DNA of 7,023 nt, taken from the IMG/VR virus record IMGVR_UViG_2648501841_000009; one strand, given 5' to 3'. The translations under genes and the position numbers were made by a program. Positions 4,758 through 5,399 of the stretch are shown piece after piece (position 1 is the first letter of the stretch; every line of letters starts with the position of its first letter). The notes beneath the pieces were generated by a model. It was not told the origin of the DNA and ran no database searches. It worked only from the letters and a program-made list of their open reading frames with translations. Source of the stretch: a virus. Its lineage: Duplodnaviria; Heunggongvirae; Uroviricota; Caudoviricetes.

Positions 4758-5399
4758 ATGCGTGATTACGCAAAAGTTTCTCCGCGATTCTGGCTGGGAG
4801 AAACGGGGAGAGAACTTAGAAAGGCGGGTGCAGAAGCGCAAGTTGTTGCTTTTTACCTGATGACATCCCCTCACGCAAATATGCTGGGTTTGTATTACCT
4901 GCCAGTTTTATACCTTGCTCATGAAACCGGGCTTGGTCTGGAAGGGGCTTCAAAGGGGCTTAAAAGGGCTGTTGAAGCTGGTTTTTGTAGCTATGACCAT
5001 GATGCAGAGATGGTCTGGGTCCATGAAATGGCAGCCTGGCAGGTTGGGGAAACGTTGAAGCCTGGCGATAACCGTTGTGCAGGTGTCAGGAATGAGTATG
5101 CATCATTACCTGAAAACGCTTTTCTGTCAGTGTTTTACGACAGATATAAAACGGATTTCCATCTGGATGTGAGGCGGAATAATAGCCGAAATTCGGTAAG
5201 GGGCTTCGAAGGGGCTTTTAAGGGGCTTCGAAGCCAAGAACAGGAACAGGAGCAGGAGAAAGAACAGGAACAGGACAAAAACACTATGGTTCATGGCAAA
5301 AAAACACCACGAACCAGGCAGGGGATGTTCAGACCGTCAATCCTGGTCAGCCAGCAGGCACGACACCGGAAGCCGATTCGGGCGCTGTGCAGCAGGTGA
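4758..5399 (+). CDS. phage replication initiator, N-terminal origin-binding part (annotated ORF begins at 4647)
   Basis: GAGGT precedes ATG 4758 (MRDYAKVSPRFWLGETG...). Sits in the lambda O position upstream of a DnaC-like gene and contains iteron-like repeats. The C-terminal 35 residues look out of frame; the upstream ATG at 4647 has no RBS. Confidence 0.65.
   Translation: MRDYAKVSPRFWLGETGRELRKAGAEAQVVAFYLMTSPHANMLGLYYLPVLYLAHETGLGLEGASKGLKRAVEAGFCSYDHDAEMVWVHEMAAWQVGETLKPGDNRCAGVRNEYASLPENAFLSVFYDRYKTDFHLDVRRNNSRNSVRGFEGAFKGLRSQEQEQEQEKEQEQDKNTMVHGKKTPRTRQGMFRPSILVSQQARHRKPIRALCSR
4942..4971. repeat. iteron-like direct repeats, cluster A
   Basis: AAGGGGCTT at 4942 and 4953 and a degenerate AAGGGCTG at 4964, giving an exact 11-bp phase. 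Confidence 0.5.
5198..5235. repeat. iteron-like direct repeats, cluster B, with embedded palindrome
   Basis: AAGGGGCTT at 5198, 5209 and 5220 (11-bp phase). A 12-bp perfect palindrome GGCTTCGAAGCC lies at 5224..5235. A 56-nt tract with no T on the top strand follows (5229..5284). Confidence 0.55.

Follow-up and report, generated by a model that had tools for sequence, protein, structure and literature searches.

Introduction

In the textbook layout of bacteriophage lambda, the O gene codes for a replication initiator composed of two domains joined by a flexible linker, and the origin of replication (ori) is formed by phased direct repeats within this very coding sequence. The repeats adjoin an A-rich stretch encoding the linker, and the gene for helicase loading comes next. 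In E. coli, the primosomal protein I, DnaT, is encoded directly upstream of dnaC in a dnaT-dnaC operon (PMC13377028). Closest in sequence to the locus described here are the protein WP_001205823.1 of the E. coli O157:H7 prophage at yccA, which is named 'DNA-binding protein' or 'hypothetical protein' in RefSeq, and the proteins of the phages Tritos, Evi and vB_EcoS-689R5, which are annotated as 'phage replisome organizer' or 'replication protein O'.

The stretch of DNA analysed here, hereafter the window, comprises 7,023 nucleotides of the IMG/VR virus record IMGVR_UViG_2648501841_000009. A first-pass annotation of its sequence had described an initiator ORF and a DnaT-like ORF as one gene of about 363 amino acids split by the loss of a single A, and had left sequencing error, inactivating mutation and a slippage site as causes. 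As detailed below, the two neighboring ORFs are indeed one replication-initiator gene, with a run of eight adenines (A8) as the ancestral state.

Prophage context

The window covers the part of an O157:H7-type lambdoid prophage of E. coli that is responsible for immunity and replication. In finished genomes this prophage adjoins tusE-yccA, and, prompted by the label 'ECs1072 family', we take it to be of the Sp4/CP-933M type. The window contains the DicF RNA, a ParE/PaaA2-type toxin-antitoxin pair, a cI-like HTH repressor, YdaS and YdaT, and further an ECs1072-family gene on the minus strand, the initiator gene and a gene for a DnaC-like ATPase. The order YdaS/YdaT, ECs1072-family gene, initiator, DnaC-like ATPase and DUF1627 is the same in the prophage encoding WP_001205823.1, and the initiator gene is likewise found upstream of the DnaC-like loader in the window, FORC_044, PV15-279, FRIK944 and the draft loci. 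The DnaC-like helicase-loader gene (5855..6645, plus strand) lies directly downstream of the initiator gene and is interrupted by an N gap at 5876-6007. It matches the NCBIfam models PRK12377 (437.8 bits) and DnaC (278.7 bits) as well as Pfam IstB_IS21, and is listed in RefSeq as 'ATP-binding protein' WP_000788751.1.

Several further features of the window were recorded. The DicF antisense RNA (631-682, minus strand; Rfam RF00039, 76.9 bits) is located upstream of dicB. Two long ORFs overlap on opposite strands, 3980-4540 (+) and 4224-4679 (-); RefSeq annotates the one on the minus strand (ECs1072 family, NCBIfam 105.7 bits), while the plus-strand ORF of 185 amino acids is called by several draft annotations and lacks a family match. 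The YdaT variant V14 is common and not private to the window. None of the related loci retrieved is identical to the whole window. Two differences are absent from closely related loci, namely a C for G at 2296 in a terminator-like hairpin and, at 758-776, GGGGGAAGGAATAACCCCT versus GGGGAAAGAATAACCCCG. An exact copy of the 37-nt stretch around the latter site is present in 14 IMG/VR contigs and absent from the collection of genome contigs; at ≥95% identity over ≥200 nt, none of these 14 is otherwise similar to the window. For 758-776, clustered homopolymer errors were considered and rejected, as the natural variant is found elsewhere; the stretch may have arisen by recombination with, or by assembly mixing from, another prophage copy.

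Two reading frames, one gene

In the window sequence seven adenines are found at 5298-5304 in the context GGC AAAAAAA CACC; this homopolymer (plus strand) is the site of the 1-nt loss. The upstream reading frame, frame 0, extends over 4647..5399 and terminates with ...HGKKTPRTRQGMFRPSILVSQQARHRKPIRALCSR (C-terminal end KKTPRTRQGMFRPSILVSQQARHRKPIRALCSR) at the stop codon TGA 5397-5399. The corresponding fragment of the initiator gene, 4758..5399 on the plus strand, comprises 213 amino acids, namely the N-terminal domain, the QE-rich linker and a 33-residue out-of-frame tail. Frame 2 is open from 5222, directly after TAA 5219-5221, with the open stretch NTTNQAGDVQTVNPGQPAGTTPEADSGAVQQV and a translation including ...QKNTTNQAGDVQTVNPGQPAGTTPEADSGAVQQVMTAG...; from there on it offers no ATG, GTG or TTG until GTG 5387, followed by ATG 5399. 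The true continuation of the gene runs in this frame over 5305..5848 (plus strand); its product starts with a disordered spacer, which leads into a helical C-terminal domain (about 5513-5761) and finally the tail. From ATG 5399, which overlaps the TGA of the upstream frame as TGATG, gene callers predict an ORF of 149 amino acids (5399..5848, plus strand), which is not an independent gene. As read from the sequence, an AGGTG abuts this ATG, too close for a normal ribosome-binding site. The run, the tail of the initiator frame and the start-less frame 2 noted in the first-pass annotation are thus all present in the sequence. Since an open stretch of approximately 55 codons is expected by chance with a probability of roughly 7%, and is not rare on its own, the case is made by comparative evidence instead.

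Addition of one A to the run yields a gene of 1092 nt whose product of 363 amino acids is identical (100%) to WP_001205823.1, just as the proposed fusion into about 363 residues had predicted. The whole gene, of the 'replisome organiser' type, spans 4758..5848 on the plus strand of the window, where it is interrupted by the frameshift. When 4647-5848 was searched by megablast in 5426 complete E. coli genomes, one match of 1202 nt with 100% identity was obtained, FORC_044, while the remaining top matches listed are 99.9% identical and all 1203 nt long. FORC_044 is identical to the window across 4647-5848, and over the same range it differs from the intact O157:H7 copy PV15-279 solely by A7 versus A8. 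On the A7 copy of FORC_044 RefSeq places one CDS corresponding to 4758..5848 of the window, a pseudogene described as 'DNA-binding protein, frameshifted', whereas the A8 copies (PV15-279, FRIK944 and others) carry a single 1092-nt CDS for WP_001205823.1.

In order to count the alleles of the run, short queries centered on it were matched to the 5426 complete E. coli genomes, with identical flanks. Eight adenines are found in 436 genomes, seven in one (FORC_044) and nine in two; the A9 carriers are two complete genomes from CDC, to which one Logan contig, SRR8867893, is added. In a collection of 15 billion proteins, the 363-residue protein is present on at least 1000 contigs and the exact product of 213 residues on 23, and the 33-residue tail of the upstream ORF is found only in A7 assemblies. 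The repaired protein aligns end to end with PHROG 1701, annotated as 'DnaD-like helicase loader' (profile positions 1-323 of 323, residues 1-363, E 9e-149).

Alignment of 28 homologues from several genera, with identities down to about 50%, is continuous across the junction, and N-domain, QE/QD-rich linker, spacer of variable length and C-domain are always part of one chain. The homologues from Klebsiella, Raoultella and Lelliottia are single proteins of 300-312 amino acids (50-56% identity, 100% query coverage), and that from Serratia is a single ORF of 354 amino acids (94% coverage). In the phages Tritos, Evi and vB_EcoS-689R5 one ORF of 356 amino acids each reads ...HGVKNATNQAGDVQTVNPGQ... 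or ...NTMVHGVKNATNQAGDVQTVNPGQ... across the junction; here the A run is broken (GTAAAAAAC or GGCGTAAAAAACGCC) and in frame, and the run segment is absent from the Klebsiella-type proteins altogether. The methionine encoded at 5399 is missing from four homologues of the alignment, and an arrangement of two genes was not found in any related prophage or phage examined. The main claim of the first-pass annotation, one gene of about 363 residues split by the loss of one A, is therefore borne out by the 436 single-ORF A8 genomes, by the FORC_044 pseudogene and by homologous prophage and phage genes that are single ORFs, whereas its description of the run needs to be corrected insofar as A7 is the shortened state of an ancestral A8.

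Domain structure and DnaT-like tail

The structure of the intact protein as predicted by AlphaFold2 has an overall pLDDT of only 55.8 because of a long disordered linker. Residues 133-252 score below 50 and are predicted to be disordered, while residues 251-340 reach 77-94 and include a confident helical domain (residues 253-335). For about residues 1-135, the N-terminal part, confidence in the model is no more than moderate. A Foldseek search of the PDB gave no match at E≤0.001; the N-domain shows weak matches to MarR-type winged-helix folds (E>0.1). Together with the iteron-like repeats in the gene described below, these matches lend weak support to the earlier designation as an origin-binding N-domain, which is plausible. 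Neither half of the protein matches any Pfam family at E≤0.01, the lambda O family (Phage_rep_O) included.

At its very C-terminus the protein carries the tail GTNNQRCVNHISEPDTEIPPGFRG (5774..5845, plus strand), which resembles the C-terminus of E. coli DnaT. The PDB DnaT chains 6aep, 2ru8 and 9zbt match query residues 340-363 only, and profile searching against the PDB likewise revealed no DnaT similarity outside the tail. Over these last residues DnaT is nearly the same as the family consensus krdvnkisepdkeipsGfrG. The NCBIfam DnaT model NF002770 scores 17.8 bits against a cut-off of 201 and is matched at model positions 156-179 only, so the protein is not a member of the DnaT family. The likeness is limited to the last ~22 residues (ISEPDxxIPPGFRG), and the 'DnaT-like C-domain' of the first-pass annotation holds for this segment and not for the remainder of the C-terminal half.

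Direct repeats and candidate origin

The initiator gene harbors five exact copies of AAGGGGCTT in two clusters with 11-bp phasing. Three exact, iteron-like copies (5198..5228, plus strand; starts at 5198, 5209 and 5220, spacing 11 bp) immediately precede the linker and the A run, and the second cluster (4942..4972, plus strand) consists of two exact copies (4942 and 4953) and one degenerate copy, again spaced by 11 bp. Both clusters encode the conserved peptide EGASKGL, which is present in all homologues sharing the N-domain and absent where the N-domain differs. The AAGGGGCTT repeats are followed by GAACAG repeats and then by the A-rich stretch containing the run. These GAACAG/GAGCAG units (5236..5275, plus strand) form a direct-repeat family that encodes the QE-rich linker and varies in length between alleles: in-frame indels of 24 nt, such as the deletion in JBDIFL01, change the length of the linker, and protein variants of 363, 367, 369 and 371 amino acids are observed. 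Because this layout is like that of lambda ori inside gene O, the origin of the prophage is probably located at the AAGGGGCTT repeats inside the initiator gene.

Judged from the sequence, the intact initiator of 363 residues would begin with an N-terminal DNA-binding domain, whose probable targets are the AAGGGGCTT repeats within the coding sequence. This domain would be followed by an acidic linker of QE repeats with the disordered spacer, the helical C-terminal domain and finally the DnaT-like tail; the gene lies directly upstream of that for the DnaC-like helicase loader. Recording the A8 tract of the linker as A7 shifts the frame, so that a stop is reached 31 codons downstream of the run, after a total of 33 out-of-frame residues, and the C-terminal half is left without a start of its own.

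Origin of the shortened run

The A7 allele is sporadic and rare and arose many times. It occurs on at least seven SNP or indel backgrounds and is not a clade marker: carriers are FORC_044, several DEC3/DEC4 drafts with differing SNPs, AIGH01, GL896790, JBBUYK01/JBBUWN01, an IMG/VR contig with a 24-nt linker insertion, JBDIFL01, a Logan contig and the window. This recurrence, set against one carrier among 439 finished genomes with the locus, points to a cause tied to particular assemblies. Each A7 locus was compared with the finished sequence of FRIK944. The DEC drafts, reportedly obtained by 454 pyrosequencing, contain 2-7 single-base deletions per 10-20 kb, nearly all of them in homopolymers of 5-8 nt, and seven of the nine covered instances of three other 8-nt runs in the region are called as 7 in these drafts; in the A8-bearing assemblies checked, every covered 8-nt run is correct. 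Over 25 kb of the Stx2a phage, FORC_044 differs from Sakai at two positions only, a C6 shortened to C5 and a G5 shortened to G4, which frameshift the genes of the Q antiterminator and of exo. Wherever the flanking sequence suffices, other homopolymers are under-called too in the assemblies with A7. The same signature, a single-base deletion in an 8-nt run alongside others of its kind, is known from the homopolymer indel errors of pyrosequencing and uncorrected long-read assemblies.

Q and exo are annotated as frameshifted in FORC_044 (26735-27168 and 40396-41075 of the extracted locus, compared with Sakai), and by sequence comparison these frameshifts are probably assembly errors that create false RefSeq pseudogenes. 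Other sporadic frameshifts are found in the initiator gene itself: KI304002 has an additional T near 5313, and JHII01 lacks a G near 5211; going by such calls, the linker region is generally prone to indel calls.

Since A7 assemblies show other homopolymer deletions nearby, the A7 of the window is best explained as a homopolymer miscall in a gapped draft, favored over a real mutation with a probability of roughly 60%; the source strain would then possess an intact gene. For the window's own run this status is inferred from the other A7 assemblies. The two N runs of the window, 2104-2113 (10 N) and 5876-6007 (132 N), replace 46 and 88 real bases, respectively, and behave like scaffold gaps of a draft assembly rather than like length-preserving masks. 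Counter to an artefact, the three 7-nt runs of the window that are comparable with the reference are all called correctly, and the window contains no other homopolymer of at least 8 nt by which its own error rate could be gauged. Furthermore, A7 is the only indel in the few kb covered by the recent drafts JBBUYK01 and JBBUWN01 and by one Logan assembly, and may thus be a genuine allele in some cases.

A genuine and recent inactivation, in which replication slippage from A8 to A7 turned the prophage initiator into a pseudogene, is a possible but doubtful alternative. According to this explanation the cell would make an N-terminal fragment lacking the C-terminal half that recruits the helicase loader, and replication of the prophage would be disabled. 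A homopolymer of 8 nt is a natural hotspot of slippage at which A7 and A9 both occur sporadically, and such mutations could plausibly arise in the A8 tract of a cryptic prophage on which selection is weak. Decay of the prophage is also seen in some strains as a 13-nt integrase deletion and as IS insertions, and JBBUYK01 and JBBUWN01, which share a SNP at 3305, would fit a small real lineage. Against this, the only complete genome out of 439 with A7 belongs to an assembly with homopolymer deletions elsewhere, the allele is concentrated in one draft-genome project that mostly under-calls its other 8-nt runs, and it is scattered over many unrelated haplotypes instead of marking one clade. Among the causes given in the first-pass annotation, sequencing error is hence favored over true mutation, and the third, a slippage site, is rejected on the grounds set out next.

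Programmed recoding would make the split regulatory: the fused protein would be produced by ribosomal -1 frameshifting or by RNA-polymerase slippage on the A run. It is true that the wild-type GKKNTTNQ results from a -1 shift on GGC AAA AAA ACA as well as from one additional A in the mRNA, and low-level leakiness is expected of such an allele from general homopolymer slippage; the A7 allele is thus probably slightly leaky, as a general property of homopolymer frameshifts and not by a designed signal. In virtually all homologues, as in the 436 A8 genomes, the two parts are in frame and no shift is required, and the run is not conserved, being broken to GTAAAAAAC in Tritos, Evi and 689R5 and lacking in the Klebsiella-type proteins. 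The frame-0 heptamer C AAA AAA does not conform to the X XXY YYZ of -1 frameshift sites of the dnaX or IS type, no upstream SD-like element is visible in the sequence, and the RNA fold of 5285-5400 is unremarkable (z = -1.49; 17 of 200 shuffles fold as well). Efficient transcriptional slippage typically needs nine or more A's, a length not reached by the run, which counts seven in the window and eight in intact copies. Recoding is for these reasons very unlikely.

Equally improbable is a contingency switch, in which the A8 tract in the linker and probable origin region would turn prophage replication off and on in O157-type lysogens through A7, A8 and A9, with the free N-domain of A7 acting as a replication repressor and low-level slippage restoring some full-length protein.

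The weakest explanation, two real genes for an initiator and a DnaT-like protein translationally coupled via TGATG, has in its favor that some callers annotate 213 + 149 or 250 + 149 amino acids in A7 assemblies, and is ruled out by the homologues, in which both halves form one chain (a single 356-residue ORF in the phages) and neither the run nor ATG 5399 is conserved, as well as by the restriction of the 33-residue upstream tail to A7 assemblies, by the conserved linker encoded in the 55 codons before the downstream ORF and by the lack of any such layout in the related prophages and phages examined.

Implications for annotation

What the window shows is a known gene with an ordinary homopolymer frameshift; the identical allele is already flagged as a pseudogene by RefSeq, and no new biology is involved, whether artefact or real mutation. 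For annotation it follows that the proteins of 213 (or 250) and 149 amino acids deposited for A7 assemblies are pieces of a single initiator, and that such entries represent neither separate families nor a DnaT-like protein in its own right. Were the frameshift genuine, this cryptic prophage would be left without a replication initiator, a routine event as prophages decay. Of possible use to the phage-replication field are two by-products, the probable intragenic iterons and the DnaT-like tail next to a DnaC-like loader.

Comparison with known replication systems

The nearest relative is the gene of WP_001205823.1 in the O157:H7 prophage at yccA, which has the same sequence after restoring one A and lies in the same gene neighborhood; the copy in the window differs from it by A7 instead of A8 and hence appears as two ORFs. 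The proteins of Tritos, Evi and vB_EcoS-689R5 share the C-terminal half, which is 91-92% identical at the DNA level from ~5278 onwards and extends through spacer and helical domain to the PPGFRG tail, as well as the single-ORF state. They differ in an unrelated N-terminal domain without the EGASKGL motif and in lacking a DnaC-like gene downstream. The shared segment of these phages (~5278-5848) begins at a module-exchange junction in the linker that adjoins the A run.

Lambda O with its ori resembles the present locus in several elements of the layout outlined in the Introduction, namely two domains with a flexible linker, phased direct repeats within the own coding sequence next to the A-rich linker-coding stretch, and a helicase-loading gene immediately following. 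Unlike in lambda, the partner of the window's initiator is DnaC-like and not lambda P, and the initiator itself has no Pfam match to the lambda O family. DnaT of E. coli has no detectable similarity to the initiator outside the tail. The initiator gene is, however, like dnaT positioned directly upstream of a dnaC-like gene, and by analogy with this shared position the tail may be a common motif contacting the loader or the helicase.
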